A stretch of 32,000 nucleotides of DNA. Origin: Erysipelotrichaceae bacterium MTC7 (lineage in GTDB: Bacteria > Bacillota_I > Bacilli_A > Erysipelotrichales > Erysipelotrichaceae). A model generated the notes under the pieces. It was given only the letters and a program-made list of their open reading frames with translations. It was not told where the DNA came from and ran no database searches. Shown here one piece after another: positions 1,488-20,687 of the stretch. The stretch lies in NCBI GenBank assembly GCA_001695645.1, contig LVZN01000016.1, positions 1 through 32,000 on the forward strand, read 5' to 3'. The position numbers and the translations under genes were made by a program. Position 1 is the first letter of the stretch. Every line of letters starts with the position of its first letter.

Positions 1488-3104
1488 ATGTACACTGTTG
1501 TCATTGCGGATGATGAATACGAATTACGAAAAGCCTTAATTCATACCATCGATTGGAATGGTTTGGGGTTTGAAGTTGTAGGGGAAGCGGAGAATGGTGC
1601 AGTTGCACTTGAACTTGTTGAATTGTTGCAACCAGACTTATTAATTACAGATATTCAAATGCCTTTTATTTCGGGGATTGAGCTAGCTCGACAAGCAAGA
1701 AACATTCGACCGTACATGAACATCGTGTTTATTAGTGGATACGATGATTTTTCATATGCACAACAAGCGATTCAATACAACATTATCAGTTATCTATTAA
1801 AGCCACTTTCATCAAGTGAACTGGAAGCAGAATTGGTAAATATACGACATAAAATAGATGATCGATTTGCGCAACTAAGTGGATCTTTACAAGAAGATCA
1901 AAATGAGAAAATTCAAAGTTTAAAAGTTAATGAGTTTTTAATGTCACAATTGCTTGATCAGAATGTTGCATTTGAAAAACGTGATGATGAAGAAGCGATA
2001 AAAAAAGATGCGTTGGCCTTGAATATCATCGATACAATGAGTGTCGATAATTATTATCAAACGTTGGTGTTAACGTTTATGGATGATGCAGGACATAATC
2101 AAACAGAAGAAAAACATGTAAAGTTCGCCAATACCATTGTAAAAAAATACTTGTTGCATGGTGCCTTTTACTCGCGTAAGAAAATCATTGTGGTTGTTAG
2201 TGGAACAAAAAAAGAATTGGAACGATGCTTACCAATAATTGCCACAGAATGTGTGCAAAGCGCCAAGCGTATTTTAAAGTACGATTGTATGATGGGTGTG
2301 AGCCACACCTATAACAATTGGTTGCAACTACCTGTATCTTATGATGAAGCCCTTGCCGCAATTCGTTTTACAAAACTGGATGAGCCGGTGCAATATGCAT
2401 CAGATATCTCAAAAAGTACAAAACATGACTTTGATGTGATTGGTCAGTTTGTTGATCAACTTGAACATTTAATCAAAACGGAAACACATGAAAAAATCGA
2501 TGCGTTTTTGAACGAAGTATTTAAACAACCGGAGTTTCAATATAGCAACACGTTGGATATGTTTATGATTCATGTATTTGCCAATGTCAGTGAAGCGGTA
2601 ACTGCGATTGCTTCAAAAGAGGAAATAACGAAGTTTTTAAACCATGTATATGGGTGGAATATCGAAAGTGCGAGTGGGCATTTGGAGACCACAAAAGAGA
2701 AGATTAGAAAAATTGCACATGAAGCATTGGATATCATTGCCGGCCAAAGAAAAGAAACAAGTGAACTGTTGTGTCAAAACGCACTGGATTTAATTCGTAA
2801 TCAATATGCAGATGAAGATATGTCCATTGCTAAAGCAAGTCAATTGTTGCACGTGAGTTCGAGCTATCTAAGTGCCATTATTAAAAAGAATACCAACAGT
2901 ACCTTTGGTACGTTATTAACAGAAAAACGAATGGAAAGTGCAAAAGAACTGTTGCTTTCTACCTCAGCTAAAATCATGGAAATTGCCAACAAGTGTGGAT
3001 ACAGTGATACACATTACTTTAGTTATTGTGTGAAACGTTATTTTGGTGACTCACCAAATAAAATTCGTGAAAAACAAAGGGAAGAACAACATGAAAAGGC
3101 TTAG
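1488..3104 (+). CDS. two-component response regulator, REC domain + AraC-type HTH (YesN-like)
   Basis: N-terminal receiver (VVIADDE...LLITDIQMPFISGIEL...ISYLLKP) and C-terminal AraC HTH (SIAKASQLLHVSSSYLSAIIKK...IANKCGYSDTHYFSYCVKRYFGDSP). GGGGG SD upstream. Confidence 0.9.
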   Translation: MYTVVIADDEYELRKALIHTIDWNGLGFEVVGEAENGAVALELVELLQPDLLITDIQMPFISGIELARQARNIRPYMNIVFISGYDDFSYAQQAIQYNIISYLLKPLSSSELEAELVNIRHKIDDRFAQLSGSLQEDQNEKIQSLKVNEFLMSQLLDQNVAFEKRDDEEAIKKDALALNIIDTMSVDNYYQTLVLTFMDDAGHNQTEEKHVKFANTIVKKYLLHGAFYSRKKIIVVVSGTKKELERCLPIIATECVQSAKRILKYDCMMGVSHTYNNWLQLPVSYDEALAAIRFTKLDEPVQYASDISKSTKHDFDVIGQFVDQLEHLIKTETHEKIDAFLNEVFKQPEFQYSNTLDMFMIHVFANVSEAVTAIASKEEITKFLNHVYGWNIESASGHLETTKEKIRKIAHEALDIIAGQRKETSELLCQNALDLIRNQYADEDMSIAKASQLLHVSSSYLSAIIKKNTNSTFGTLLTEKRMESAKELLLSTSAKIMEIANKCGYSDTHYFSYCVKRYFGDSPNKIREKQREEQHEKA

Positions 3105-4833
3105 GTTTAAATGGTCGGGCATTAGTTTGCAAATGGTTATCACTGCTGTGATGATTGGACTTTCTTTTGCGATTATTGTGTCTTTATCAACGTTCTTTAT
3201 AAACGCACACATTGAGAATATTGAAGAGGGTGCTTTACGTAACTCGCAGCAAGTTGTGATGCAAACAGCAACCTCCATTGATCAAATCAAAGCGCAAATG
3301 GAATCACGTGTAAAAAAGGTGCGCAGTGAAATTGAACATATGCAAAACCAAGAGGAGATTCAGCACTATCTCAATATCTTCAATGATTTGGAAGATGATG
3401 TTGAAGGTGTCTTCATTTATGATGATAGTGGTGATGTTTTGCTGCATGGCGACAATGGGAAAAACTTGAAGACAAATATGGTTGAAAATCTGTCCTTTGA
3501 TGATGTTCTATTCGTGAATAGTCAAAACGGAATTGCCATCATGCGGCCCCATGTAGAAAGTATCTTTGAAAACTATTATCCATGGGTGGTAACCCTAGGT
3601 ATTCGTTTGGATAGTGATGCTATAGCAAATTCACGGTATTTGGTGATTGACTATAAGTTCTCAGGGATTTCTAGTTATGTTGATAATATCGGGGTTGGAC
3701 AACGCGGTTATTGTTTTGTCGTTGATGATAATAATAATATAGTATATCACCCGAAACAGAGAATGATTAACAGTGGTGTAGTAAAAGAAAATACGTCAAC
3801 AATTAGTAAGCTTGAAGGAAATGAAGGTATTGTGGATGGTACGATTTATGTAAAAGAAGCTGTTGATAATGGACAGTGGAATATTGTTGGTGTAAGTTAT
3901 GTAAATGAACTAATTGCAGAGCAAGTAAAAGATTTTCAACTTTATGTATCGATTGTTGCCTTTGTTTCAATTTTAATTTCCATCATCTTAAGTATGATTG
4001 TTGCAACTAAGGTTTCTGGTCCAATCAAACGTTTGGTTCACGCGATGAAAGACTTTGAAAGCAACGTCGATTCATATAGTTATGAACCACAAGGTGGAGT
4101 TGTGGAAATTAAAAGTTTATCAACATCATTCTCTAAAATGGTAATTATCATTCGAAACTTAATCAAGCAAGCAAAAGAAGAAGAAGTAACTTTAAGAAAA
4201 ACGGAAATGAAGGCATTGGAGTCACAAATCAATCCACACTTTTTATACAACACCTTGGATTCCATTCAATGGATGTGTGAACAAGGGAAAATGGATGAGG
4301 CTGTGGATATGGTTGGTGCTTTAGCTAAACTCTTTAGAATTAGTATCAATAAAGGAAAACAACTGATTCCCATTCGTGAAGAAATTGATCATGCCATGCA
4401 TTATTTGATAATTCAAAAATATCGATATCGTGATCAGTTTACGTATGATTTTGATATTGATGAGCAAGCACTTGATTACTACACAAACAAAATTACGATT
4501 CAACCGATTTTAGAAAATGCAATTTATCACGGGATTGATCGCATGATTGATGAAGGGCATATACAAGTAAACGTACGTTTGGAAGAGGAAACGATTGTCA
4601 TCGAAGTGATTGATAATGGACTGGGGATGAGTCAGGAACAAATTGTTTCGATTCTTAGTAAAGATCAACATGGAAAAAATGGAATCGGTTTAAAAAATGT
4701 AAACGATCGAATTAAAATCTATTTTGGTGATTCGTATGGTGTATATGTAGAAAGTGAATTGGATGAAGGAACGAAGGTAACCATTCGTTTCCCTGCCTTT
4801 AAAGGAGAGGAGGATGACTTGTTTGAAAAGTAA
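3091..4833 (+). CDS. sensor histidine kinase, YesM-like (two TM helices flanking a ~250-aa extracytoplasmic domain, HAMP, His_kinase, HATPase_c)
   Basis: ESQINPHFLYNTLDSI H-box region, and ENAIYHGI...DNGLGM...NGIGLKNV ATPase motifs. I prefer ATG 3091 (MKRLRFKW, GGGAAG SD) over the track start at 3043. It overlaps the regulator stop by 14 nt. Confidence 0.88.
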   Translation: MKRLRFKWSGISLQMVITAVMIGLSFAIIVSLSTFFINAHIENIEEGALRNSQQVVMQTATSIDQIKAQMESRVKKVRSEIEHMQNQEEIQHYLNIFNDLEDDVEGVFIYDDSGDVLLHGDNGKNLKTNMVENLSFDDVLFVNSQNGIAIMRPHVESIFENYYPWVVTLGIRLDSDAIANSRYLVIDYKFSGISSYVDNIGVGQRGYCFVVDDNNNIVYHPKQRMINSGVVKENTSTISKLEGNEGIVDGTIYVKEAVDNGQWNIVGVSYVNELIAEQVKDFQLYVSIVAFVSILISIILSMIVATKVSGPIKRLVHAMKDFESNVDSYSYEPQGGVVEIKSLSTSFSKMVIIIRNLIKQAKEEEVTLRKTEMKALESQINPHFLYNTLDSIQWMCEQGKMDEAVDMVGALAKLFRISINKGKQLIPIREEIDHAMHYLIIQKYRYRDQFTYDFDIDEQALDYYTNKITIQPILENAIYHGIDRMIDEGHIQVNVRLEEETIVIEVIDNGLGMSQEQIVSILSKDQHGKNGIGLKNVNDRIKIYFGDSYGVYVESELDEGTKVTIRFPAFKGEEDDLFEK

Positions 4834-5788
4834 GAAATTATGGCTTGTTATGGCTTGCTTTTCATTAGCGATAACATTGATGGCTTGTTCAGCTAGTGTC
4901 AGTCATGAACAGGTGTATATTGCAGTCATTCCCAAACAAGGGAAATCGAGTTTTTTCCGTGAAGTAGCCAGTGGTGTAAACACAGCAGCAACAGAATACG
5001 GTGTTCGTACGACGTTTGAAGGAGCACAAAATGAAGAAGATTATGAGACGCAAAATAGTCTAATTAAACGGGCGATTCATGCAAATGCGGATGCGATTGT
5101 GATTTCTGCTATCGATGAAAACAAATCCAACGAATTGTTGGAAGAAGCAGTGAGTAAAGGAATTGTTGTAATTACCATTGATAGTGGCGTTACTTATGAT
5201 GGAATCAGTCAACATATCGGGACAGATAACAAAGAAAGTGGTCGCATTGCAGCAAAAGAACTTTGTTCCATGGAACCTGGACAATTAAACATTGGTATCG
5301 TGAATTTTGAAAAGCATACAAAAAATGCAATTGAACGTGAAGCTGGTTTCATGGAGCAAATGGAAAAAGAATCATCGGTTCGTATTATGGATTCCGTAAG
5401 TACGGTATCCAATGCTTCAGAAGCAGCAGATGCAACCAAAGAACTGCTCGAACAAAATCCAACCATCAATGCGATTGTTGCTTTTAATGAGTACACATCA
5501 CTTGGTGTTGGTTACATGATTCGTGAAATGAATCGACAAGACGACATTCATGTTGTGGCTTTTGACAACAATGCAGAAAGCATCGGCATGATTGAAAACA
5601 ATGAAATTGATCGTTTGATTGTGCAAAACCCCTTTGCGATGGGATACCTAGCCATTGAATCTGCACTAAAAGAAATAGAAAAAAGAGATACGCTTACGCC
5701 AGAGCAGTTTACCGAAGTACTGGTTGTCAGTCGTAGCAATCTTTACGAATATGAAAATCAAAAGTTTGTTTTTCCTTTTGAAGACTAA
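4814..5788 (+). CDS. periplasmic-binding-protein-fold lipoprotein (RbsB/XylFII-like), probable ligand-sensing partner of the kinase
   Basis: Signal peptide with lipobox (LMAC, then SAS). Type-I sugar-binding fold motifs (IAVIPK...ADAIVISAID...VVITIDSG...VVAFDN). GGAGAGGAGG SD. Overlaps the kinase stop by 20 nt. Confidence 0.85.
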   Translation: MTCLKSKKLWLVMACFSLAITLMACSASVSHEQVYIAVIPKQGKSSFFREVASGVNTAATEYGVRTTFEGAQNEEDYETQNSLIKRAIHANADAIVISAIDENKSNELLEEAVSKGIVVITIDSGVTYDGISQHIGTDNKESGRIAAKELCSMEPGQLNIGIVNFEKHTKNAIEREAGFMEQMEKESSVRIMDSVSTVSNASEAADATKELLEQNPTINAIVAFNEYTSLGVGYMIREMNRQDDIHVVAFDNNAESIGMIENNEIDRLIVQNPFAMGYLAIESALKEIEKRDTLTPEQFTEVLVVSRSNLYEYENQKFVFPFED

Positions 5789-6144: not shown

Positions 6145-7245
6145 ATGATTAAGAGATTAGCGAAAATGCTATTCGTCGCATTAATGGCAGTTAGTTTAGT
6201 TGCCTGTGGTGGCGGTGATAGCGGATCAGGTGGCGATGGAGAAGCTAGCGTTCACGTGTTCTATTATGATTATGGTGATACGTACATTTCAACAGTACGT
6301 ACTGCATTAGACAAAGAATTAGATGGAATGGATGTTAGTTACACTGACTACGATGCAGCTGGTAAACAACAAACACAAACGGAACAAGTCCAAACTGCAT
6401 TATCAAGTGGGGCAACGATGCTTGTTGTAAATATCGTTGAAACTGGTTCAGATGACGCAGCGATGACAATTATCAATGCCGCAAAAGAAAAAGATGTTCC
6501 AGTTGTATTCTTCAACCGTGAAGTATCTAACGAAGTAGTTAACTCATACGAGAAATGTTCATTTGTAGGTACTGATGCTAAAGAAGCAGGTATCATGCAA
6601 GGGGAAATGATTGGTGATGAATTGGTTGCAAACTTCGATACATATGACTTAAACAAAGATGGAAAAATTTCTTACGCAATGTTTAAAGGTCAAGAAGGAA
6701 ACAACGAAGCAATCTACCGTACACAATACGCTGTAGAAGATGCTGACAAAAAATTAGAAGCAGCTGGAAAAGCAAAATTAGAATACTACGATTCAGCAAA
6801 CTCTGACAAATACCAAGTTGACCAAGATGGAACATGGTCTGCAAAAGCAGCGCAAGACTACCTTGCAACTGCATTAGGTAAATACAACGACGGTAACAAC
6901 AACATGATTGAACTTGTTATCTGTAACAACGACGGTATGGCTGAAGGTGCAATTTCTGCATTACAAACAGCAGGTTACAACAAAAAAGGTGGAGACAAAA
7001 CAATTCCTGTATACGGAGTTGATGCTACTAAAGCAGCAGTTGATTTAATTGGACAAGGCGTAATGGCAGGAACAATTAAACAAGATGCTGAAGGTATGGC
7101 AAAAGTAATCGCATTAGCAGTTAAAAATGACGTAGCTGGTGATGACACATTCAAAGGAATCGATGATTCAGGTGTAGAAGGTGTTAAAGTTGACGACGGT
7201 GTTGCTAAAGCACGTATCCCTTACCAAATTTACACAGGTGAGTAA
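6145..7245 (+). CDS. mglB: galactose/glucose ABC transporter substrate-binding lipoprotein (MglB-like)
   Basis: Lipobox LVAC, then GGGDSGSGG linker. Collinear similarity to E. coli MglB as I recall it (VVFFNRE, GTDAKEAGIMQG, Ca-loop-like DLNKDGKIS, VICNNDGMA, IPVYGVDA). GAGGAGG SD. Confidence 0.9.
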   Translation: MIKRLAKMLFVALMAVSLVACGGGDSGSGGDGEASVHVFYYDYGDTYISTVRTALDKELDGMDVSYTDYDAAGKQQTQTEQVQTALSSGATMLVVNIVETGSDDAAMTIINAAKEKDVPVVFFNREVSNEVVNSYEKCSFVGTDAKEAGIMQGEMIGDELVANFDTYDLNKDGKISYAMFKGQEGNNEAIYRTQYAVEDADKKLEAAGKAKLEYYDSANSDKYQVDQDGTWSAKAAQDYLATALGKYNDGNNNMIELVICNNDGMAEGAISALQTAGYNKKGGDKTIPVYGVDATKAAVDLIGQGVMAGTIKQDAEGMAKVIALAVKNDVAGDDTFKGIDDSGVEGVKVDDGVAKARIPYQIYTGE

Positions 7246-7272
7246 GACGAAAGCAATTTAAACATACATTGT

Positions 7273-7293
7273 GAGGACGTCATTGACGTCCTC
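7273..7293 (+). promoter_or_regulatory. intercistronic GC-rich hairpin between mglB and mglA
   Basis: GAGGACGTCA / TGACGTCCTC perfect inverted repeat, with no following T-run. Confidence 0.55.
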
Positions 7294-7316
7294 AAATTGT
7301 AGATAGGAGAACTAAC

Positions 7317-8810
7317 ATGAATGATGTAATTTTAGAAATGAAAAATATCAATAAAGAGTTTCCTGGGGTGAAGGCTCTTGACAATGTCTCATTTTCAGTA
7401 AAAAAAGGAAGCGTTCATGCACTTATGGGGGAAAACGGAGCCGGAAAATCAACGTTAATGAAATGTTTGTTTGGGATTTATTCAAAAGATTCTGGAGAGA
7501 TTATTCTGGATGGACAAACCGTTGAATTTAAGGATTCAAAACACGCGCTTGAAGCGGGAGTTGCCATGGTGCACCAAGAACTAAACCAAGCGTTGAAGCA
7601 AAATGTTATGGATAATATTTGGCTTGGACGTTACCCAAAAATTGGTGGCATTTTCACATCAGAGAAAAAGATGTTGCATGATACCAAAGAGATTTTTGAA
7701 CAAATGGGTGTTGATGTTGATCCCAAGCGCATTATGAGTACGATGTCAGTATCACAACGACAAATGGTGGAAATTGCCAAGGCTGTTTCTTACAATTCGA
7801 AAATAATTGTGTTTGATGAACCTACATCTTCCTTAACTGATAAAGAAGTAGAACATTTATTCAAGATTATCAATATGTTACGAGACCAAGGGGTTGGAAT
7901 CGTGTACATTTCACACAAGATGGACGAAATTTTGAGAATCTCAGATGAAGTAACCATCATGCGTGATGGACAATACATTGCCACAAAGGATGCAAAGGAT
8001 TTAACCATGAACGAGATTATTCGTTTGATGGTTGGTCGTGAACTGACAAATTTATATCCTGAAAAGACAAATACACCTGGTGAGATGGTACTTGATGTAA
8101 AAAATCTAACGGGTATGTATTCACATATCGAAGATGTCTCATTCCAAGTGCACCGCGGTGAAATTCTTGGAATCGCTGGACTTGATGGTTCAGGAAGAAC
8201 GGAAGTGTTGGAAACTGTATTTGGGATAGCAACAAAAAAATCTGGGGAGATTATACTTGATGGAAAAGTAATCAAGAACAATAGTTCACTTGAATCCATT
8301 AAAAATGGATTTGCCCTTGCAACGGAAGAAAGAAGAGCAACGGGAATCTTTGGAATTCTTTCCGTATTGGAAAATACTGTTATTTCCAATCTAAAAAAAT
8401 ACAAGAAAATGGGTTTACTAAACGACCATGAAATGCGTAAAGATACCGAGTGGTCCATTGATTCCATGCGAATCAAAACACCAAGTGCGGACACGCAAAT
8501 TCGTTCACTTTCTGGAGGTAACCAACAAAAAGTAATTCTTGGACGTTGGTTATTGACCGATCCAGAAGTGCTCCTGTTGGATGAACCAACAAGGGGAATT
8601 GATGTTGGAGCCAAGTATGAAATTTATCAATTGATTATTGATTTAGCTGCAAAAGGTAAATCGGTAGTTATGGTAAGTTCAGAAATGCCGGAACTACTTG
8701 GTGTATGTGACCGGATTATGGTGATGTCAAATGGTCGTGTGGCTGGTTCTTTACCAGTCAAACAAGCTAGTCAAGAAAAAATCATGGAACTAGCTGCGAA
8801 GTATTTATAG
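7317..8810 (+). CDS. mglA: sugar ABC transporter ATP-binding protein with duplicated NBD (MglA-like)
   Basis: Walker [10 protein letters not shown], Walker B IIVFDEPT, a degenerate second P-loop GLDGSGRTE, and signature [24 protein letters not shown]. Confidence 0.93.
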
Positions 8811-8820
8811 GAGGAAGTAT

Positions 8821-9888
8821 ATGTTTTTCAAAAATATAAAATCTCGATTCAATGAAATCAAAGAGATGGATACAAAAGATCGAAATCGTTTTATTAAGGA
8901 AACGTTAATTAACAACTCGCTTTTGATCTTTATGCTAATTGCAATTATTTATATTCAAATTCAAAGACCACAATTCTTAAGTCGTGAGTCAATTATCAAT
9001 ATTGTTTCATTATCGGCATCGGCGATGCCTTTAGCCTTAGGGGTTGCTGGAGCAATCATCCTAACTGGAACCGATTTATCCGCAGGACGCATTGTAGGAT
9101 TAACCGCATGTATTTCTGCTTCATTGTTGCAAGCAGTGGATTATTCAAACAAAATGTTTCCAGACTTGCCAGCAATTCCAATTATCATTGTCTTCTTATT
9201 GGTTATTGCACTAGGAGCACTGATTGGATTTGTGAATGGTTTCTGTGTGTCTAAATTCTCATTGCACCCATTCATTGTGACACTAGCTACACAATTAATG
9301 GTGTATGGAGTCATTCTTATGTACCTTATGAATGGTGACAACAACGGCCAGTCCATATCCGGGTTATCAAGTGGATTTACCGAGCTGACCAAAGGTAGTT
9401 TATTCAAAATTGGTGGAACACCGGTACCCAATTATGTATTGATGGCCATTGTTTTAACTGGTGTGATGTGGGTTGTTTGGAATAAAACAGCGTTTGGAAA
9501 GAACATGTTCGCTGTTGGGTCAAACCCAGAAGCTGCAAACGTTTCTGGAGTCAATGTTGCCTTAACGATTACACTAGTATTTACCTTAGCTGGAGCTTTG
9601 TATGCATTTTCAGGATTTATTGAAGCCGCACGTATTGGATCAAACTCTGCCAATACAGGATTGAACTATGAACTAGATGCGATTGCTGCTTGTGTTATTG
9701 GTGGTGTATCATTCGTTGGAGGGATTGGGAAAATCCGCGGAGTGGTACTTGGAGTTGTCCTCTTAAAACTGATTTTCGTTGGGTTGAACTTCTTAAGTGT
9801 AAGTGTAAATATGATTTACATTATCAAAGGGTTAATTATCTTAGTTGCTTGTGCAATTGATATGCGTAAATATCTCGTACGAAAATAG
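8821..9888 (+). CDS. mglC: sugar ABC transporter permease (MglC/RbsC family)
   Basis: About 10 hydrophobic helices, a TGTDLSAGR motif and an ELDAIAACVIGG motif typical of BPD_transp_2 sugar permeases. AGGAGG SD. Confidence 0.9.
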   Translation: MFFKNIKSRFNEIKEMDTKDRNRFIKETLINNSLLIFMLIAIIYIQIQRPQFLSRESIINIVSLSASAMPLALGVAGAIILTGTDLSAGRIVGLTACISASLLQAVDYSNKMFPDLPAIPIIIVFLLVIALGALIGFVNGFCVSKFSLHPFIVTLATQLMVYGVILMYLMNGDNNGQSISGLSSGFTELTKGSLFKIGGTPVPNYVLMAIVLTGVMWVVWNKTAFGKNMFAVGSNPEAANVSGVNVALTITLVFTLAGALYAFSGFIEAARIGSNSANTGLNYELDAIAACVIGGVSFVGGIGKIRGVVLGVVLLKLIFVGLNFLSVSVNMIYIIKGLIILVACAIDMRKYLVRK

Positions 9889-9896
9889 GAGGAACT

Positions 9897-10064
9897 ATGG
9901 AAAAAACAATCATTGAAACAACAGTAGAAATTAGTGAAGATAAACCACAGGTTACAAAAATTCAAGGGTTATATGATCGTGTGAACATTCCTGTCAAAGT
10001 GCTTGATCGTGTGATCTTTGGTGGCATTGGTCTAATCATTATGTTGATTCTTATTTCCTTATAG
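9897..10064 (+). CDS. unannotated 55-aa small membrane protein
   Basis: Below the ORF-track length cutoff. ATG at 9897 sits 5 nt after AGGAGG (9888..9893). Translation: MEKTIIETTVEISEDKPQVTKIQGLYDRVNIPVKVLDRVIFGGIGLIIMLILISL, an acidic N-terminus plus one C-terminal TM helix. It exactly fills the mglC-to-next-gene gap. Confidence 0.6.
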   Translation: MEKTIIETTVEISEDKPQVTKIQGLYDRVNIPVKVLDRVIFGGIGLIIMLILISL

Positions 10065-10079
10065 AAAGTTGAGCTATAT

Positions 10080-10469
10080 ATGGAAAAAGTAATTTATCAA
10101 AAACAACCAGAGATAGACTACGACAGTCTGGTTATGGTATTTCATCAAGGTGGAAAACGTTACTTCTCACATTCATTTATTTATCATGGACGTGATGGAA
10201 AGTACTTACAATTCTTTTATAAAGATCCACTTCCTGAAGGTGATTTTCTGAAAGGATGGAATTATTTGGATGATCATTCCTTTCGTATCGTGATGGTTCC
10301 TGAACCTTCGCAAGCTGTGGCAATTGATGACTTTATTGCCGCACATAATCCAATCAGTCAAATCAATGCAATCGAAATTATTGAAATTGGTGGCTTTGAT
10401 GAAATTGATGCGCTGTTGAAAGATCCAAGTATTGCCAGTCAAGAAATCATTTTCTTCGGTCGCAAATAA
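10080..10469 (+). CDS. conserved 129-aa protein of unknown function (copy 1), last gene of the mgl-like operon
   Basis: Complete ORF with no signal peptide or TM helix. Gapless alignment to the ORF at 13662..14051 gives 77/129 identical residues by hand count. No known family recognised. Confidence 0.8.
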   Translation: MEKVIYQKQPEIDYDSLVMVFHQGGKRYFSHSFIYHGRDGKYLQFFYKDPLPEGDFLKGWNYLDDHSFRIVMVPEPSQAVAIDDFIAAHNPISQINAIEIIEIGGFDEIDALLKDPSIASQEIIFFGRK

Positions 10470-10629
10470 GTTAATAATAAAGATGGTGACATCTTATTAT
10501 ACTGGTGACATGGACAAGTGTTGCCAACAATCTTTACTTGTTTAGCGTTCAAGTTTCCTCTATCTTCATGGATAATCTCGACGGAATGCTAAACGAATAC
10601 ACACACACTTACATCTCTCTGTAAGTAAA

Positions 10630-10662
10630 GTTAGGATGCACTTGATGCATCCTAACTTTTTT
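10630..10662 (+). terminator. rho-independent terminator
   Basis: GTTAGGATGCA (10630..10640), loop CTTGA, TGCATCCTAAC (10646..10656), T6 (10657..10662). Confidence 0.9.
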
Positions 10663-10741
10663 ATCGTGATTTGATTCTTTTGAAAAGACTAGACGAAGGT
10701 TTGCTTTACGCGTATACTTTGAATGCAAACCAAAGAAAGAA

Positions 10742-12223
10742 ATGATAATGAATAAATTTACAAACTATGGCTTTGATCAAGAAATCTTAACAGCAATTGA
10801 TAAACTTGGATATGTACAGCCTACCAAGGTACAAGAAGAACTGTTTCCTGTAATTCTTAGCCAACAAGACGCCATTGTGAAATCGCAAACAGGTAGTGGG
10901 AAAACCGCTGCTTTTGCCTTGCCAATTTTACAACAGTTGGATTGGAACATCCGTACACCACAAGTTTTGGTGCTTACACCAACACGAGAACTTGCTTTAC
11001 AAATCAAAGATGACATGTTTCATTTGGGTAGATATAAGCGTATGAACGTACAAGCAGTATTTGGAAAGATGTCATTTGAAGGACAACGCAAACAACTAGC
11101 ACAACGTACACATGTTGTAGTAGGAACACCAGGAAGAGTATTGGATCACTTAATCCAACATACGCTTGATGTCAGTGAAGTTGCCTATTTGGTGATTGAT
11201 GAAGCTGATGAAATGTTCACGATGGGATTTGAAGAAGAAATGCAAAAAATTCTAGAACGTTTACCAAAACAAAGACAAACGATTTTATTGTCGGCAACTT
11301 TGGATGAACGTATTGAAACCTTGTGTCAACAGCAAATGCATCAGCCTGCTTTTATTGATGTTATTTCAAAGCGTAATGTCTTTGATGTGATTGAACAACA
11401 AGCATACGAAGCTGTGGGTGATAAGGATCAATTGTTGGAAGATGTCTTAATGAAGGAAAATCCTGATAGTGCCATTATCTTTTGCAATACGCAAGAGATG
11501 GTCAACCATGTGGCTAATGAAGTGATTGGTTATCCAGAAGCAACAAGGAAACTACATGGTGGGATGGATCAAAAAGATCGAATTCAAGTAATCACAGATT
11601 TTAAACTGGGGTACTTTCGCTATTTGGTGGCAACAGATGTTGCTGCTCGTGGTCTTGATATTGAAAAAGTAGAACTTGTCATAAACTATGACGTTCCAAG
11701 TGATGTACAAACCTATGTTCATCGTATTGGACGAACAGGTCGTAAAGATCAACAAGGAAAAGCAATTACCTTAGTTACACCAAACGAAATGGGAATGCTG
11801 CACAAACTTGAAAGTGAGTTAGCAATTACCCTATCGATGCAACCAACCATTACGGAAGGCATGCGTAAAACATATGAACAAGCATTTGTAAGTAAACGTA
11901 GCCAAAACCGTACATTGGTTAAAGAAAAAAGTTTAGCATTTAAAGAGGATATTATGAAGTTGCATATCAACGCAGGTAAGAAAACCAAGATGCGTCCGGG
12001 TGATGTGGTTGGTGCGATTACATCCATTGAAGGGATACTTGCAACAGATATTGGTGTTATTTCCATTGTAGATGTTTCGACGTTTGTTGAAATCTTAAAT
12101 GGAAAAGGACAGCTTGTCTTTGATGCGCTTCAAGATTTACCCATCAAAGGCCGCATCCGCCGTATCAACAAAGCTAATGTTTCGCAATATGAAATTGATT
12201 ACTACAACCAAGAAAACAAATAA
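10742..12223 (+). CDS. dbpA: DEAD-box ATP-dependent RNA helicase with C-terminal DbpA/YxiN-type RNA-binding domain
   Basis: Motifs SQTGSGKT, PTRELA, DEAD (VIDEADEM), SAT and HRIGRTGR. The C-terminus (MKLHINAGKKTKMRPGDVVGAI...VEILNGKG...INKA) resembles the B. subtilis YxiN RNA-binding domain as I recall it. The start could be 10742 or 10748. Confidence 0.9.
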   Translation: MIMNKFTNYGFDQEILTAIDKLGYVQPTKVQEELFPVILSQQDAIVKSQTGSGKTAAFALPILQQLDWNIRTPQVLVLTPTRELALQIKDDMFHLGRYKRMNVQAVFGKMSFEGQRKQLAQRTHVVVGTPGRVLDHLIQHTLDVSEVAYLVIDEADEMFTMGFEEEMQKILERLPKQRQTILLSATLDERIETLCQQQMHQPAFIDVISKRNVFDVIEQQAYEAVGDKDQLLEDVLMKENPDSAIIFCNTQEMVNHVANEVIGYPEATRKLHGGMDQKDRIQVITDFKLGYFRYLVATDVAARGLDIEKVELVINYDVPSDVQTYVHRIGRTGRKDQQGKAITLVTPNEMGMLHKLESELAITLSMQPTITEGMRKTYEQAFVSKRSQNRTLVKEKSLAFKEDIMKLHINAGKKTKMRPGDVVGAITSIEGILATDIGVISIVDVSTFVEILNGKGQLVFDALQDLPIKGRIRRINKANVSQYEIDYYNQENK

Positions 12224-12415: not shown

Positions 12416-13513
12416 ATGAAATTAAAAAACATTCTAAGTTTATGGATCGTTGGTGTCATGTGTATAGGGCTTGTTGGATGTAAAAGTGAAGAGAAAGAAA
12501 CCACCAAGGAAGCCAGTGTACATGTATTCTATTATGATTATAACGATGTGTATGTATCAACTGTGCGTGAACATCTAGAAACGGATTTCCATAAGAAGCA
12601 GGTTGCTTTTACAGCTTATGATGCTACAGGAGAACAACAAGTTCAACTACAACAAGTAGATCGAGCAATTGAAGATGGCGCTAGTGTGCTTGTTGTGAAT
12701 ATTGTGGAAACCGGAAGTGACGATGCGGCATTAGCTATTATCGAAAAAGCGAAAGCAAAACAATTACCAGTTATTTTCTTCAATCGTGAAGTCTCAGATG
12801 CTGTTGTTGCTGCATATGAAAACTGCGCATTTATTGGTACAGATGCAGCAGAAGCAGGAATCATGCAAGGACAAATGATCGGGGATCACTTATTAGAAAA
12901 CTTTGAGCAATTTGATTTGAATCATGATGGGCAAATTTCATATACTTTGTTTAAAGGTCAAGAGGGAAATGAAGAGGCCATCTACCGGACAAAATATGCA
13001 GTAGAGGAAGCCGATAAAAAGTTACATGCAGCAAATAAAAAACCATTGCTGTATTACGATTCATTAAACAGCAATAAATATCAAGTAGACCAAGATGGAA
13101 CATGGTCAAAAGCAGCTGCAAAGTCGTATTTACAAGAAGCATTGCTTTCTTACAATGAAAGCAATGGTAAGATGATAGAACTTGTGATTTGTAATAACGA
13201 TGACATGGCTTCTGGTGCGATTGAGGCCTTGCAAGAAGTTGGTTACAATCGTATTGGAGAAAATCGCAACATTCCAGTATATGGTGTAGATGCATCAAAT
13301 ACTGCAATAAAACTTATTGATGAAGGTATTATGGCTGGAACCATTAAACAAGATGCTGCAGGAATGGCAAAGTTGATAAGTTTTGCGACTAGCAATAGCA
13401 CAAAGGGAAATACTGCATTTCAAGCAATCGATACTGTTGGTATCAAAGATTTAACCATCGATAAAAAAGTTGCAAAAGCACGCATCCCATATGAAATGTT
13501 TTTTGGAAAATAA
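12416..13513 (+). CDS. second MglB-like substrate-binding lipoprotein, no adjacent permease or ATPase
   Basis: Lipobox LVGC. Long blocks identical to the 6145..7245 product (EASVHVFYYDY, LVVNIVETGSDDAA, FFNREVS, EAGIMQG, FKGQEGN, KYQVDQDGTWS, MIELVICNND, IPVYGVDA, MAGTIKQDA, VAKARIPY). AAGGGGAAG SD. Confidence 0.9.
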   Translation: MKLKNILSLWIVGVMCIGLVGCKSEEKETTKEASVHVFYYDYNDVYVSTVREHLETDFHKKQVAFTAYDATGEQQVQLQQVDRAIEDGASVLVVNIVETGSDDAALAIIEKAKAKQLPVIFFNREVSDAVVAAYENCAFIGTDAAEAGIMQGQMIGDHLLENFEQFDLNHDGQISYTLFKGQEGNEEAIYRTKYAVEEADKKLHAANKKPLLYYDSLNSNKYQVDQDGTWSKAAAKSYLQEALLSYNESNGKMIELVICNNDDMASGAIEALQEVGYNRIGENRNIPVYGVDASNTAIKLIDEGIMAGTIKQDAAGMAKLISFATSNSTKGNTAFQAIDTVGIKDLTIDKKVAKARIPYEMFFGK

Positions 13514-13519
13514 TACAAT

Positions 13520-13551
13520 AAAAAATGGTAGCTGTATTTGCTACTTTTTTT
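13520..13551 (+). terminator. weak terminator-like hairpin
   Basis: GTAGC / GCTAC 5-bp stem with a 7-nt loop, flanked by an A-run and T7. Probably leaky. Confidence 0.45.
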
Positions 13552-13661
13552 CGTGACTGAAAGACTATGCTAGAAATATGAGCCAAGCAAGGGACAAACG
13601 TGTAAAAGTTCGTTAGAATGAAGGTGTACAATTACGTATGTAAGGAAGGGAAATTGAAAGT

Positions 13662-14051
13662 ATGAAAAAAACGATATACCAAAAACAACCAGATTTGAAT
13701 TACAAAAGTTTAGTGATGGTATACTTCGATGGAGAAAATCGTTACATTGCCCACTCGTTTATTCATAACGGAAGGGAAGGAAAGTATTTATCTATCTTGT
13801 ATAAAGATCCATTACCAACTGGAGATTTTATTGCTGGCTGGAATTATTTGGATGACAATTCATTTTCGATGGTCATGATTCCAGAAAAAAACCAAGAGAT
13901 GGCTGTTGAAGATTTCTATGCTGCTTGGAATCCAGAAATGCTGGCACAAGGAATTGAAATTATTGAAGTTAAAGGGTTTGATGAAGTCAATCGTTTAATG
14001 ACAGATCCAGAAATCAACGAACAAGAATTTGTGTTCTTTGGACGCAAATAA
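13662..14051 (+). CDS. conserved 129-aa protein of unknown function (copy 2)
   Basis: Same length as the 10080..10469 product, with 77/129 identity and no gaps. AAGGAAGGGAA SD. No signal peptide or TM helix. Confidence 0.8.
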   Translation: MKKTIYQKQPDLNYKSLVMVYFDGENRYIAHSFIHNGREGKYLSILYKDPLPTGDFIAGWNYLDDNSFSMVMIPEKNQEMAVEDFYAAWNPEMLAQGIEIIEVKGFDEVNRLMTDPEINEQEFVFFGRK

Positions 14052-14114
14052 CAACAAGAAGTTACATGAGGGGTATGCATTCCTTTCATATGAACGTGCT
14101 ATTTGAATTCTAAG

Positions 14115-14146
14115 CCAAGTATGTTTGTACTTGGTTTTCTATTTTG
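14115..14146 (+). terminator. rho-independent terminator
   Basis: CCAAGTA (14115..14121), loop TGTTTG, TACTTGG (14128..14134), then TTTTCTATTTT. Confidence 0.8.
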
Positions 14147-14184: not shown

Positions 14185-15243
14185 ATGAATAATGAATTTT
14201 TATTAATAGCTTTACTAGCACTGTTAATTGTGTTGCTTCTTGCAGTACTTTTTTTATTGTTGAAGCAAAACAAACACGATGACCATGAGGAACTTGATCG
14301 CATGCAAAAACAATTGCTCGATTTTCAATTGGCCATTAGCCAAAGTGTACGTAACGATATGAATATGTTAAATGAAAACACAACTGATAAATTAACTAAG
14401 ATGCAACAAAGTTTGAATCAACAAGTGAACGTCTCTTTTGAATCAACAGGAAAAGTATTCCGTGAAGTTATGACACAAATCGGTAAAATCGATAAAACCC
14501 AGGAACAATTAACACTGCTATCCCATGACATTTCCAGCTTGCATAGCATTCTCAATGACAAGAAAACACGTGGGATGTATGGGGAAGTAGAACTATACAA
14601 TATCTTAGAAAATGCATTTGGACTGGATTACACAAAGTATGACAAACAGTATAAATTGAGTAACAACCATATTGTGGATGCTATTATCTATGGAAATGAT
14701 GCGTTAGGTAAAATTCCTGTAGATTCTAAATTTCCTTTGGAAAACTTTAATCGATTGATGGATCCAGAGTTGTTGCAAGCACAGAAACAAGTTGTGTATA
14801 ACCAATTCAAGAACGATGTTAAAAAGCACATTGATGCCATTCATACAAAGTATTTGATTAAAGATGAAACAAGTGAATTTGCATATATGTTTATTCCAGC
14901 GGAAGCGATCTTTGCTTATATAACTGCAAATATGGATGAAGTTTTAACCTATGCTTATCAAAAACATGTATACCTTGTTTCGCCGACGACATTGATGGCA
15001 TACATTACAGCAATTAAAGCTTTGTATTTGGGGCAACAAAAAAATGAAAAAATGCAAGAGATACAAACAGAACTGAATAAACTTGCTGTTGAGTTTGATC
15101 GCTTTCATGATCGCTATCAAAGTGTCGCGACGGACATGCAACGCACGCAAAAAGACATGCAAACTGTTTTAATTACAGCAGAGAAAATTGAAAAGCGTTT
15201 TCGTAAAATTGAAGCAGTTGAATTAGAGGAACAAGAACACTAA
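14185..15243 (+). CDS. rmuC: DNA recombination protein RmuC
   Basis: N-terminal TM helix, coiled-coil region and a C-terminal RmuC-type domain (GEVELYNILE...VDAIIY...IPVDSKFPLENF...FAYMFIPAEAIF...YLVSPTTLMAYI). TGgTATACT extended -10 at 14160..14168; AGGTGA SD. Confidence 0.88.
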   Translation: MNNEFLLIALLALLIVLLLAVLFLLLKQNKHDDHEELDRMQKQLLDFQLAISQSVRNDMNMLNENTTDKLTKMQQSLNQQVNVSFESTGKVFREVMTQIGKIDKTQEQLTLLSHDISSLHSILNDKKTRGMYGEVELYNILENAFGLDYTKYDKQYKLSNNHIVDAIIYGNDALGKIPVDSKFPLENFNRLMDPELLQAQKQVVYNQFKNDVKKHIDAIHTKYLIKDETSEFAYMFIPAEAIFAYITANMDEVLTYAYQKHVYLVSPTTLMAYITAIKALYLGQQKNEKMQEIQTELNKLAVEFDRFHDRYQSVATDMQRTQKDMQTVLITAEKIEKRFRKIEAVELEEQEH

Positions 15244-15378
15244 CCAAAAATTCCGGTTCACCTTGAAAATCTTCCAATGTTTACTAGAAAGAAGAAAAAT
15301 CTTTGCAACTGCCGTATACTAAATGTAAGGAAAGAAGACTTAAGTGTTTGATAAGTCTTGCCAAATGGAGGTGATGCG

Positions 15379-15534
15379 ATGGTTAGCAAAGAAGTGAAAG
15401 CAATCAACCAAAGAAACATACAATTACAAAACAATATGAATAAAGGTTGGAGTATTGGACCGATAACCGTTGTATTGATGATGGTATTGTTTGCCATGTA
15501 TATGGCAAGCTTTGGTTTTGGCTGGTGGGGCTAA
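15379..15534 (+). CDS. unannotated 51-aa small membrane protein
   Basis: Below the ORF-track cutoff. ATG 15379 follows GGAGGTGA (15368..15375). Translation: MVSKEVKAINQRNIQLQNNMNKGWSIGPITVVLMMVLFAMYMASFGFGWWG, with one TM helix. A terminator follows. The track's minus-strand ORFs here have no SD. Confidence 0.5.
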   Translation: MVSKEVKAINQRNIQLQNNMNKGWSIGPITVVLMMVLFAMYMASFGFGWWG

Positions 15535-15561
15535 TCTTACCCGAAAAGAAATTAAGATATG

Positions 15562-15593
15562 AGTGAGGGTCATTTTGATACCTCACTTTTCTT
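15562..15593 (+). terminator. rho-independent terminator
   Basis: AGTGAGG (15562..15568) pairs with CCTCACT (15581..15587), followed by TTTTCTT. Confidence 0.7.
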
Positions 15594-15706
15594 ATACCAT
15601 CGTTAACAAAACATGATGTTTTATTAGTATGTGAAGGCTTATCATATGAATAGATGCTAAGGTGTAACTCCGTGTAAACATAATAAAAATATCTGAAACA
15701 AAAAGA

Positions 15707-15735
15707 TTGACATCATAGTTAAGTAGGTGTATTAT
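15707..15735 (+). promoter_or_regulatory. consensus sigma-A promoter of the marR-ABC operon
   Basis: TTGACA (15707..15712), 17-nt spacer, TATTAT (15730..15735). Confidence 0.75.
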
Positions 15736-15768
15736 TGCAATACTTAATAGTTAAGTAACTTAAGTAAT
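15715..15768. promoter_or_regulatory. array of TTAAGTA half-sites (putative MarR operator)
   Basis: ATAGTTAAGTA occurs at 15715..15725 and again at 15747..15757. Palindrome TACTTAA-tag-TTAAGTA spans 15741..15757. Tandem TTAAGTAAC/TTAAGTAAT spans 15751..15768. The sites run from the promoter spacer to the SD. Confidence 0.55.
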
Positions 15769-15780
15769 TGGGAGGTGACT

Positions 15781-16239
15781 ATGCCAAATAAGGATAGAGC
15801 AATACGATTTAGGGAATTAATGTATATGATGCGACGACTCAAACCACACGATGAGTGTTCGAAAGTTAAACACCAAGATATGATGTTTATGAACGGAATT
15901 ATGCGTGCTGGAAAAGGTGAACCGATTAAAGTCAGTCAAATCGCTAAAATGTTTCGTTTTAGTGCTCCTGCGGCAAGTCAAGTCGTACGTCGACTTGAAG
16001 AACGTGGATTTGTCGAACGAATCATTCGTGATGATGATCGACGTAGTGTCTACATTCAAGTGACGGATGATACAAAAAGGGAACTACGTAGAATTGAAGA
16101 TCAAATGAATCAACGGTTGGACCACATCCTTGATTATTTGGGTGATCATGATACGGAAGAATTGATGCGCATTATGGAAAAAGTCGTTCAATATATGGAT
16201 GAAGAAGAGAAAGGAACTTTACATGATAAAAACGTTTAA
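15781..16239 (+). CDS. MarR-family transcriptional regulator
   Basis: Winged-HTH pattern (VSQIAKMFRFSAPAASQVVRRLEERGFVERIIRDDDRRSVYIQVT). I prefer ATG 15781, 5 nt after GGAGG (15771..15775), over the track GTG at 15775. Confidence 0.85.
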   Translation: MPNKDRAIRFRELMYMMRRLKPHDECSKVKHQDMMFMNGIMRAGKGEPIKVSQIAKMFRFSAPAASQVVRRLEERGFVERIIRDDDRRSVYIQVTDDTKRELRRIEDQMNQRLDHILDYLGDHDTEELMRIMEKVVQYMDEEEKGTLHDKNV

Positions 16240-18484
16240 ATACTTGAAAAAGTATTGGTGGATGCTGTTACTTGTAGTTGGTTTATTATACGGACAAGCA
16301 CAAGCGGAATTGGCACTACCTGACTATATGAGTGAAATTATCAGCAACGGGATTCAATCCGGAGGTTTTAATAGTAGTGTACCAGAAATGATGAGTAAAG
16401 ATAGTTATGATCATACTTTGATTTTTATGGATGATAAAGATGCAAAAATTATGGAAGATAGTTATTCGTATATTCCGTTTGCAGACATTAAAAATGATGA
16501 ACTTCCAGAAGCGATTGATTTATCAAATAAAAGTGTCATTAAAGATAGTGGTATTTATGTATTGAACGATTTGAGTTCAACAAAATTTAAGCAGTTACAA
16601 AAAGTGATGGATGTTCCATTTTTGATGGTAAATGGAATGGAAAGCATCGGTCAAGGGGATACAAGTTTTATCTCTAAAGATCAAGCAAACCAAATGCAAG
16701 AAGTTATGGACAAATTACCAGAAGGGATGACCATCTTCGATGCCTTGCAAATGCAACCAAAAGAAGAAACTTTAAAAATGGTGGATGAGCAAAAAAGCAA
16801 ACTTGAAGAACTTGGTGATGTTGCAAGTATGTCCATGGTAAAAGGTGAATACGAACGCTTGGGTGTAAATACACAACGCGTGCAAAACAACTACATCTTT
16901 TCGACGGGAATTAAAATGTTAGCCATTTCTTTAGGTGGTGTGTTATGTGCGATTATGGTTGGCTTCTTTGCAAGTCTAATTGGTAATGGTGTTGCTCGTC
17001 GTATGCGTCAAGATGTCTTTGAAAAAGTCGAAAGCTTTTCAAACGAAGAGTTTAACAAGTTTTCAACAGCTAGTTTAATTACACGTACAACCAATGATAT
17101 TCAACAAATTCAAATGGTTCTTGTTATGGGAATGCGAATGATTATTTATTCACCAATTTTAGCTTTTGGTGCCATCATGCGTGTTCTAAATGATGGCTCT
17201 GGACTCATTTGGATTATTGTCCTTGTTGTTGTCGTAATCTTGGCGATCATGGTTGTAACTTTCGCAATCGCTGGACCGAAATTTAAAATTGTTCAAAAGT
17301 TAATCGATAAAATCAACTTAGTCATGCGTGAAGATTTGAGTGGAATGTTGGTCATTCGTGCTTTCCATACGGAAACATATGAAGAAGCAAGAATGGAAAA
17401 AGCAAACCGGGATCAAATGAAGGTACAATTATTTACGGGACGTACCATTGCCATAGTTATGCCATTGGTTCAATTTGTCTTTAGTGCATCAACATTATTA
17501 ATTGTATGGGTATCTGCCCAACAAATTGATTTAGGTAACATGCAAATTGGACAAATGATTGCCTTTATGCAATATGCTATGCAAATTATCATGTCATTTA
17601 TGATGATTGCGATGATTTCAATTATGCTTCCAAGAGCAAGTGCTTCTGCAGATCGTGTCTTTGAAGTTATCAATACAAAATTGAACATTCAAGATCCAAG
17701 TACACCTGAAACATTTGATACCAATGAAAAAGGATATGTCGAATTTAAAAACGTTTCATTCCGTTACCCAGGTGCGGAAGAAGATGTTTTACATGACATT
17801 AGTTTTGTGGCTAAGCCAAGACAAACAACAGCGTTTATTGGTAGTACTGGATCAGGGAAAAGTACAATTGTGAATTTGATTCCACGTTTCTTTGATACCA
17901 CAAGTGGTTCAATTAAAGTAGATGGTATGAACATTAAAGATGTAAAACAAACAGACTTACGAGAAAAAATTGGATTGGTTCCACAAAAAGGAGTTTTATT
18001 CTCAGGAACCATTGAAAGTAATATTAAATATAGTGATGAGCAAATGAGTGATGAACAAATGCAACTTGCTGCTGATGTAGCGCAAGCTACAGAATTCATT
18101 TCACAAAAACCAGAAGGATTCCAAAGTGAAATCGCACAAGGTGGAACTAACGTATCCGGAGGACAAAAACAAAGAATTTCAATTGCAAGAGCAGTTGCAA
18201 AAAACCCAGAGATTTACATCTTTGATGATAGTTTTAGTGCCTTAGACTTTAAGACAGATGCAACCGTACGTGAAGCGTTAAACAAACTTGTTGAGAAAAC
18301 AGGAAGTACGATTCTTGTGGTTGCGCAAAGAATATCTTCAATTATGCAAGCAGATCAAATCGTCGTGCTTGATGAAGGTCGCATTGTTGCAAAAGGAACA
18401 CATGACGAACTGATGGCTTCATGTGAGGTATATCAAGAAATTGCCTATTCACAATTAAGTAAGGAGGAGCTAGAAAATGAGTAA
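16223..18484 (+). CDS. ABC exporter half-transporter (TMD-NBD), degenerate-site subunit (TM287/LmrC/BmrC-like)
   Basis: Walker A GSTGSGKST and signature VSGGQKQRISIARA. Walker B is IYIFDDSFSALD, with Asp in place of the catalytic Glu. I prefer ATG 16223 (MIKTFKYLKKYWW, AAAGGAA SD). Overlaps the marR stop. Confidence 0.88.
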   Translation: MIKTFKYLKKYWWMLLLVVGLLYGQAQAELALPDYMSEIISNGIQSGGFNSSVPEMMSKDSYDHTLIFMDDKDAKIMEDSYSYIPFADIKNDELPEAIDLSNKSVIKDSGIYVLNDLSSTKFKQLQKVMDVPFLMVNGMESIGQGDTSFISKDQANQMQEVMDKLPEGMTIFDALQMQPKEETLKMVDEQKSKLEELGDVASMSMVKGEYERLGVNTQRVQNNYIFSTGIKMLAISLGGVLCAIMVGFFASLIGNGVARRMRQDVFEKVESFSNEEFNKFSTASLITRTTNDIQQIQMVLVMGMRMIIYSPILAFGAIMRVLNDGSGLIWIIVLVVVVILAIMVVTFAIAGPKFKIVQKLIDKINLVMREDLSGMLVIRAFHTETYEEARMEKANRDQMKVQLFTGRTIAIVMPLVQFVFSASTLLIVWVSAQQIDLGNMQIGQMIAFMQYAMQIIMSFMMIAMISIMLPRASASADRVFEVINTKLNIQDPSTPETFDTNEKGYVEFKNVSFRYPGAEEDVLHDISFVAKPRQTTAFIGSTGSGKSTIVNLIPRFFDTTSGSIKVDGMNIKDVKQTDLREKIGLVPQKGVLFSGTIESNIKYSDEQMSDEQMQLAADVAQATEFISQKPEGFQSEIAQGGTNVSGGQKQRISIARAVAKNPEIYIFDDSFSALDFKTDATVREALNKLVEKTGSTILVVAQRISSIMQADQIVVLDEGRIVAKGTHDELMASCEVYQEIAYSQLSKEELENE

Positions 18485-20390: not shown

Positions 20391-20406
20391 CCTTCTATAT
20401 ATGATG

Positions 20407-20434
20407 AAACTCCGTAGAAATACGGGGTTTTTTA
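20407..20434 (+). terminator. rho-independent terminator
   Basis: AAACTCCGTA / TACGGGGTTT stem with a GAAA loop, followed by a T-run. Confidence 0.8.
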
Positions 20435-20482
20435 TATTCATACCAATCATTATATAAAAATAAACATATTATCATTATGATA

Positions 20483-20510
20483 TTGACATTCAATAGAAAT
20501 AACTTATAAT
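20483..20510 (+). promoter_or_regulatory. near-consensus sigma-A promoter with no ORF behind it
   Basis: TTGACA (20483..20488), 16-nt spacer, TATAAT (20505..20510). Confidence 0.65.
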
Positions 20511-20516
20511 TTAATT

Positions 20517-20625: not shown

Positions 20626-20672
20626 ATGTTTGGAACTGAGTGGTCTATTCTTTACTTTTTTTTGTGTGCAAA

Positions 20673-20681: not shown

Positions 20682-20687
20682 ACAGAT

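Follow-up and report, generated by a model that had tools for sequence, protein, structure and literature searches.

Mgl is counted among the textbook importers, and the pathway of galactose utilisation is generally taken to be completely mapped. Sugar-uptake operons are also known to encode small cytoplasmic pyranases and mutarotases of 100-140 amino acids (aa), such as RbsD/FucU (PF05025) and RhaM/YiiL, while regulators of the inducer-exclusion type bear on uptake itself: EIIA-Glc acts on MalK, and SgrT on PtsG. Here we describe a gene, X1, that is the fifth of a co-directional string, mglB-mglA-mglC, an open reading frame (ORF) of 55 aa, and X1, in Erysipelotrichaceae bacterium MTC7 (NCBI GenBank assembly GCA_001695645.1, contig LVZN01000016.1). 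The string lies in the first 32,000 nucleotides (nt) of this contig, hereafter the window, which is the whole stretch of DNA that we analysed. Small cytoplasmic accessory genes in such operons are no novelty; what appears to be new is a protein family, here called X, with an apparently new predicted fold, present as an extra cistron on a textbook operon. We tentatively propose, from sequence and genomic context, that X serves galacto-sugar utilisation as an accessory protein of the cytoplasm and is not a transporter component; it would most likely bind, and possibly convert, the imported sugar or an early metabolite.

X1 is a genuine gene encoding a soluble protein under selection. Compared with its Breznakia orthologues, the ratio of non-synonymous to synonymous divergence (dN/dS) is 0.17-0.20; for X2, a paralogue in the same window, it is 0.10 against the Breznakia orthologue, and for X1 against X2 it is 0.21, with a synonymous divergence of 0.8-1.6 in these comparisons. 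The close homologues of X1 are all exactly 129 aa long (10/10) and have 43 invariant columns among them. A first-pass annotation, made from the sequence alone, had argued for a real folded protein from blocks shared with the paralogue; every one of these (IYQKQP, SLVMV, HSFI, GKYL, YKDPLP, GDF, GWNYLDD, IEIIE, GFDE and FFGRK) is present in the X1/X2 alignment, and selection and the fixed length lead to the same conclusion. The protein is acidic (isoelectric point, pI, 4.9), lacks cysteine and has a polar N-terminus. No 19-residue hydrophobic window was found in it, in keeping with the earlier view that signal peptide and transmembrane helix are both absent, and its location is probably the cytoplasm.

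The genes upstream of X1 encode a Peripla_BP_4 binding protein, a tandem ABC_tran ATPase and a BPD_transp_2 permease, the combination expected of a CUT2 (Mgl-type) importer, as had been supposed. MglB1 carries an EF-hand-like, Ca-loop-like motif (DLNKDGKISY). Only 8 nt separate mglC from the 55-aa ORF, and 15 nt, one fewer than the 16 first counted, separate that ORF from X1. The first strong terminator-like site after mglB is a hairpin at 10627..10659; it is indeed the only strong one downstream of X1, although its position had been given as 10630..10662. With such short gaps, no terminator-like site before 10627 and a gene order kept in relatives, X1 would be co-transcribed with mglBAC, and the transcript likely ends at 10627..10667. 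Promoter-like matches in the X1 region are no commoner than in shuffled sequence. The claim that X1 sits inside the transporter operon as its last gene is thus supported by the anatomy of the locus and by the order found in Breznakia and in four further lineages with X proteins 50-56% identical to X1. An unusually long spacer (157 nt) separates the X1 stop codon from the terminator. It opens with an 11-bp hairpin whose sequence shows weak conservation (81% over 26 nt) immediately past the stop codon of the Breznakia X1 gene; the remainder of the spacer is not conserved in Breznakia. A search of the window for structured RNAs and tRNAs, spacer included, returned nothing, and the spacer has no Rfam match.

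Family X appears to be previously undescribed, with a predicted fold that has no recognisable relative. X1 and X2 gave no match in Pfam or NCBIfam even at E<=10, a search that covers the RbsD/FucU, YhcH and mutarotase models, and a Pfam scan of 25 aligned members gave nothing for known candidates at E<=0.1, only scattered single-member noise. PHROGs and PADLOC returned nothing for X1 and X2, Parvo_coat and FAINT being noise matches of the family scans. Sequence profile searches of the PDB with alignments of 10 and 25 sequences produced no significant match. The AlphaFold (AF2) model of X1 is a confident alpha/beta structure (pLDDT 88.5). Solved structures of RbsD, FucU, RhaM, YhcH and EIIB proteins are included in the PDB, and a Foldseek comparison of this model with 350,542 PDB chains reached at best E 0.58, with TM scores <=0.32 and RbsD/FucU not among the matches listed. 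With two models (pLDDT 82 and 88.5) searched against PDB and BFVD, nothing was found at E<0.07 or TM>0.36. The first-pass annotation, which had seen here an unrecognised protein unlike RbsD/FucU mutarotases and YhcH/EbgC-like proteins, is borne out by all three kinds of search.

Particular candidates were considered and set aside. Neither a profile match nor the fold places X in RbsD/FucU (PF05025). GalM aldose 1-epimerase (PF01263) is a beta-sandwich of ~340 aa, whereas X1 is a 129-aa alpha/beta protein without a Pfam match. For the galactitol/cellobiose-type EIIB of the phosphotransferase system (PTS; PF02302), there is no Pfam PTS_IIB match, and X1 lacks the phospho-accepting cysteine. The sole PDB sequence match, between profile positions 81-128 (the C-terminal half) and the galactitol PTS IIB 5gqs_A, is weak (E 0.37, 14 bits), and kinship was rejected on that ground together with the missing cysteine and the lack of fold support. 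Immunity-protein entries in the Foldseek lists (TriX, EsaG, DUF600) have TM scores of about 0.2 and are noise. A mobile-element origin was likewise dropped, tblastn against phage and plasmid collections having found nothing.

The family is small and narrowly distributed. A word-indexed search of 5.8 billion proteins retrieved 8 clusters, from Breznakia and Erysipelotrichaceae bacterium MTC7, named 'hypothetical protein' where named at all. An exhaustive HMMER search with the family profile, run against 1.84 billion cluster representatives (clusters made at 50% identity, with roughly 15 billion proteins underlying), retrieved only 30 proteins at E<=1e-3, essentially all single-domain and of 127-136 aa. 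Members of odd length, including the longer P0031 and P0036, are frameshifted, fragmentary or garbage gene calls, which removes domain fusions as a clue to function. Scanning one genome per GTDB species yielded 34 X loci, nearly all in Erysipelotrichaceae: Breznakia, Anaerorhabdus, Solobacterium, Bulleidia and Holdemania, plus metagenome-assembled genomes (MAGs), two of which are labelled Lachnospiraceae. A further divergent branch comes from (rumen) Solobacterium MAGs. Every database member is either listed as 'hypothetical protein' or left without a name and, as judged from these searches, the family is essentially restricted to Erysipelotrichaceae.

The locus scan used a 16-sequence alignment whose pattern, WNYLD[DE][NTH]S, biases loci towards that motif; statements on invariance therefore rest on the profile-derived alignment (A2). 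In this 25-sequence alignment W60, N61, L63, D64, D84 and F85 (X1 numbering) are invariant and G37, Y47, L51 and P52 nearly so, giving the signature Y47-K-D-x-L-P ... G-W-N-Y-L-D ... D84-F85. W60, N61, D64 and D84, together with Y47/K48, would make up an invariant Trp/Asn/Asp cluster on helices 1 and 2. No histidine of catalytic type is conserved across the family, and its members are uniformly acidic (pI 4.3-5.9).

To place X in its genomic surroundings, neighbours were mapped with window-protein probes, all-against-all clustering and Pfam/NCBIfam scans, and transporters were sought within a radius of 8 kb. The window and the Breznakia X1 locus share the order three-component sensor-mglBAC-55-aa ORF-X. 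Four loci encode X proteins 50-56% identical to X1 and place them between transporter and Leloir-pathway genes, with gaps of 8-45 nt: galR-galK-mglB-mglA-mglC-114aa-X-galM in L045, GH1-galR-galK-mglBAC-114aa-X in L046, mglAC-114aa-X-galM-flavin reductase-rmuC in L005, and 114aa-X followed 8 nt on by a GalE-like NAD epimerase in L048. Holdemania (L020) has X-galM-galK-mglBAC; a soluble 208-aa protein without a Pfam match, encoded 33 nt upstream of this X, may belong to the cluster. In L022 and L023 X comes 12 nt after the string mglC-sensor periplasmic-binding protein-histidine kinase-response regulator-esterase-carboxylesterase, and in L034 the order is mglBAC-aldo-keto reductase-DUF6553 (opposite strand)-X. 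Galactosamine-type systems recur as well: in L040, L041 and L043 X is divergent beside an AgaS-family isomerase, AgaF IIA, an AraC regulator and galactosamine-type PTS IIB/IIC/IID, and in L039 the same PTS lies a few kb away. One Solobacterium locus (L025) carries an SIS gene and a Man-family PTS IIA/IIB/IIC/IID block directly downstream of X; its SIS gene is GlmS/NagB-II-like, and the block is inserted relative to L024 and L026-L033, displacing a His-phosphatase gene by about 6.5 kb. A canonical Aldose_epim gene (galM) stands beside X in L005, L045 and L020. Neighbour joining distributes the mgl/gal-linked contexts over three distinct deep branches of the tree, and their gene orders differ.

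In the other surroundings no sugar transporter lies nearby. Anaerorhabdus and relatives (L013..L021) have pyruvate:ferredoxin oxidoreductase (1173 aa)-X-GT4-pilin-like-LPG_synthase_TM-GT4/RecX-HD, in which the pilin-like protein is of the N_methyl/PilJ_C type, the GT4 is fused, unusually, to RecX-like helix-turn-helix domains, and the last gene encodes an HD/OB-fold protein. Most Solobacterium loci read amidohydrolase-HflX-M18 aminopeptidase-X-double His phosphatase-rhodanese-PfkB kinase, with a gap of 16-22 nt before X. Breznakia X2 lies between a DbpA helicase gene (or a divergent tetR) and rmuC. Single instances place X beside FeoB, MnmE, a Cna_B adhesin, NusG, a BrnA antitoxin, an ARMT1-like phosphatase or a Schlafen/AlbA_2 protein, and rumen Solobacterium shows S-adenosylmethionine synthetase-Exo_endo_phos-X, ISL3 transposase-X, chromate transporter-X, and X-isocitrate dehydrogenase-Dak next to a glutaminyl-tRNA synthetase gene on the opposite strand. 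Altogether, about 8-9 of the roughly 19 distinct contexts show linkage to sugar transport, and the association is not obligatory. No alignment column was found that distinguishes sugar-linked from unlinked members. The notion of a dedicated Mgl accessory, raised in the first-pass annotation, holds up for the 129-aa subfamily, which is consistently mgl/gal-linked; most homologues in the whole family lie away from sugar-transport genes, so for family X it is too narrow.

The slot just before X deserves separate mention. The 55-aa ORF, preceded by a strong ribosome-binding site (AGGAGG), is predicted to encode a tail-anchored protein with a C-terminal transmembrane helix, and it is kept in Breznakia (67% identity, dN/dS 0.23). 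The same slot in L005 and L045-48 (the P0005-P0008 clade) is taken by a protein of 114 aa that combines a CxxC...CxxC zinc ribbon with two transmembrane helices. No homology was found between the two, and this is a non-homologous replacement in a fixed position. Holdemania, L022 and L034 have no small membrane ORF.

The second copy in the window, X2, is 60% identical to X1 over 129/129 residues without gaps (E 1e-61), and its sequence is exactly that of P0004, annotated as a 'hypothetical protein' in Erysipelotrichaceae bacterium MTC7. It is apparently monocistronic, between rmuC and an orphan mglB paralogue, mglB2, which carries the same Ca-loop motif as mglB1, has no mglA or mglC beside it and is followed by a terminator-like hairpin before X2. 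A second such hairpin lies downstream of X2, and a promoter-like site upstream. Only dbpA and mglB2 lie between X1 and X2. MglB1 and MglB2 are 59% identical, a divergence equal to that of X1 and X2, which suggests a joint duplication of mglB and X. The simplest reading would be a single duplication of the mglB...X segment, with later loss of mglAC and the small ORF from the second copy. Breznakia, of which B. blatticola also has two X copies (L011 and L012), lacks mglB2; it would afterwards have lost that gene and split the two X loci apart. L005, with a single copy, merges both window contexts (mglAC-114aa-X-galM-...-rmuC-marR-ABC-ABC-recG). The block rmuC-marR-ABC exporter-ABC exporter-recG (ABC, ATP-binding cassette) is syntenic with Breznakia and with the P0006 metagenome lineage, as seen in L001 and L005, and marks the ancestral location of the X gene.

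How might such a protein act? On the reading that we tentatively favour, X1 would be expressed as the last cistron of the mglBAC operon under the control of a three-component sensor encoded upstream, and X would act in the cytoplasm on galacto-sugar use, that is, on galactose here and on galactosamine/GalNAc in other lineages. Invariant polar and aromatic residues of the Trp/Asn/Asp type are of the kind that builds sugar-binding sites, and the W60/N61/D64/D84 cluster, with Y47/K48, could bind, and possibly interconvert, the imported sugar or an early metabolite. X would then be placed functionally between import (Mgl) and GalM/GalK, like RbsD, FucU and RhaM but with an unrelated fold. Since many members lie outside sugar operons and galM is often adjacent, such an activity would be generic, and not plain mutarotation. 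Several observations weigh against this proposal. About two thirds of species-level X loci have no sugar transporter within 8 kb, and roughly half of the distinct contexts (Anaerorhabdus, most Solobacterium, the rumen branch and others) have none nearby; X2 appears to stand as a single cistron, and no transporter adjoins its Breznakia orthologue. A plain mutarotase would duplicate the galM that several loci already carry next to X. Sugar loci abound in Erysipelotrichaceae genomes, and the linkage counts given above are raw ones; some of the mgl/gal linkage could be gene order passed down within a single bacterial family. A bolder version, in which this family of new fold constitutes a new enzyme or sensor step leading from import to Leloir- or tagatose-type pathways (e.g. 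an anomer or ring-form converter), or else a class of membrane-tethered regulators of ABC importers working with the small membrane protein, we consider unlikely.

The main rival view is that X is independent of its context, with a housekeeping, stress or other sugar-unrelated role, and that its linkage to mgl/gal in the window's clade reflects gene order inherited within one bacterial family, chance in genomes dense in sugar loci, and hitch-hiking at operon ends, where small genes of this kind settle. Its neighbours are very heterogeneous, many members look monocistronic with gaps of 100-270 nt on both sides, X2 has promoter-like and terminator-like sites of its own, X is typically last in a gene string or alone, and the conserved core does not differ between sugar-linked and unlinked members. 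A recurrence of the Mgl/gal linkage in three deep branches with different gene orders is not, however, what simple inherited synteny predicts, nor does synteny of this kind square easily with the 129-aa clade, in which X remains between mglC and a galM/galE-like gene at gaps of 8-45 nt despite saturated synonymous sites (dS 0.8-1.4), or with X also adjoining Aga-type PTS clusters; we regard this explanation as somewhat doubtful. By a logic like that of EIIA-Glc on MalK or SgrT on PtsG, X might instead regulate the importer through protein-protein contact, docking on MglA or the upstream small membrane protein and tuning transport. All members of the 129-aa mgl-linked clade have X directly after a small membrane protein whose N-terminal segment is cytoplasmic, two unrelated proteins (55 aa and 114 aa) fill this slot, the family is as uniformly acidic as many protein-binding adaptors, and few of its invariant residues look catalytic. 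Most X genes, however, lie beside no Mgl system and no gene for a small membrane protein, and the mgl-linked loci of Holdemania, L022 and L034 dispense with the latter; we regard a docking role as quite improbable. That X is merely a divergent member of a known small sugar-operon family (RbsD/FucU, RhaM, YhcH/EbgC-like or PTS EIIB-like) is suggested by its size and operon position, which resemble those of RbsD, FucU and RhaM, and by the faint similarity of its C-terminal half to 5gqs_A; the empty Pfam/NCBIfam searches, a confident model with no PDB Foldseek match at E<0.5 or TM>0.32, and a cysteine-free X1, which cannot be an EIIB that transfers phosphate through cysteine, make this highly improbable.

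Among the other genes of the window (Table), the trio preceding mglBAC encodes a sensor of the XylFII-LytS-YesN/CuaDSR type (PMC10384115), and its arrangement is identical in Breznakia. For the LytS-type kinase, an ATG at about 3091 (MKRLRF...) is a likelier start than the mechanical one. Beyond recG the window continues with rnc, a D-Ala-D-Ala carboxypeptidase gene, a polC-type gene for DNA polymerase III alpha, mraZ and rsmH (mraW). A literature search on MTC7 or on mglBAC in Erysipelotrichaceae found nothing relevant.

Table. Coordinates of the features discussed, in the window unless another locus is named
Feature	Position	Strand	Description
Three-component sugar sensor	1488..5788	+	Upstream of mglBAC; AraC-type response regulator, LytS-type histidine kinase, sensor binding protein
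AraC-type response regulator	1488..3104	+
LytS-type histidine kinase	start 3043		PF06580 and dCache domain; mechanical TTG start, overlaps the regulator gene
Sensor periplasmic-binding protein	4814..5788	+
mglBAC	6145..9888	+	CUT2 (Mgl-type) importer
mglB1	6145..7245	+	Peripla_BP_4, E 2.9e-40; lipobox/lipoprotein signal; glucose/galactose-binding protein homologue
mglA	7317..8810	+	Tandem ABC ATPase; ABC_tran x2, E 2.1e-55
mglC	8821..9888	+	Permease; BPD_transp_2, E 5.3e-35
55-aa ORF	9897..10064	+	Between mglC and X1; hydrophobic window at residues 31-55
X1	10080..10469	+	ATG to TAA, 129 aa; soluble acidic alpha/beta protein
Spacer	10470..10626		From X1 stop to terminator
Hairpin at start of spacer	about 10473..10500		11-bp stem
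Intrinsic terminator-like hairpin	10627..10659	+	14-bp stem, with T-run to 10667
mglB2	12416..13513	+	Orphan mglB paralogue, directly upstream of X2
Terminator-like hairpin	13527..13545		Between mglB2 and X2
Promoter-like site	13591..13619		Upstream of X2
X2	13662..14051	+	X1 paralogue
Terminator-like hairpin	14112..14137		Downstream of X2
rmuC-marR-ABC exporter-ABC exporter-recG	14185..22679		Syntenic block
114-aa membrane protein gene (L005)	2338..2682		Slot before X
208-aa soluble protein (Holdemania, L020)	3145..3771		Upstream of X
SIS and Man-family PTS block (L025)	8533..12076		Directly downstream of X

A conserved extra cistron of novel predicted fold between mglC and galM, found clade-wide in gut-associated Erysipelotrichaceae, would suggest that galacto-sugar use includes a step or a point of control so far overlooked, and family X would enlarge the catalogues by a new protein family and fold. 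Such a finding has a restricted reach: family X is small (about 30 clusters at 50% identity), it belongs to one bacterial family, and its link to sugar uptake is not universal. Like families of the domain-of-unknown-function (DUF) type, X is single-domain and narrowly distributed, and all its members are hypothetical or without name; it differs from them in not yet being in Pfam or NCBIfam and in having a confident predicted fold with no PDB or BFVD match. With EIIA-Glc and SgrT the resemblance is one of analogy, as X and a small membrane protein beside mglC would fit importer modulation, but X is not homologous to either and most of its homologues are away from transporters. RbsD, FucU and RhaM are nearer in kind: X too is a soluble single-domain protein encoded within or at the end of a transporter operon and standing outside the translocator, although it shares neither sequence nor fold with them, has no family-wide catalytic histidine and often lies beside a canonical galM. 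Finally, the window resembles E. coli mglBAC in its GGBP-like (glucose/galactose-binding protein) lipoprotein with a Ca-loop, its tandem-ABC MglA, its MglC and the order B-A-C; it departs from it in carrying two extra cistrons, a small membrane protein and X, and in being placed under a sensor periplasmic-binding protein, a LytS-type kinase and an AraC-type regulator instead of GalS/GalR.
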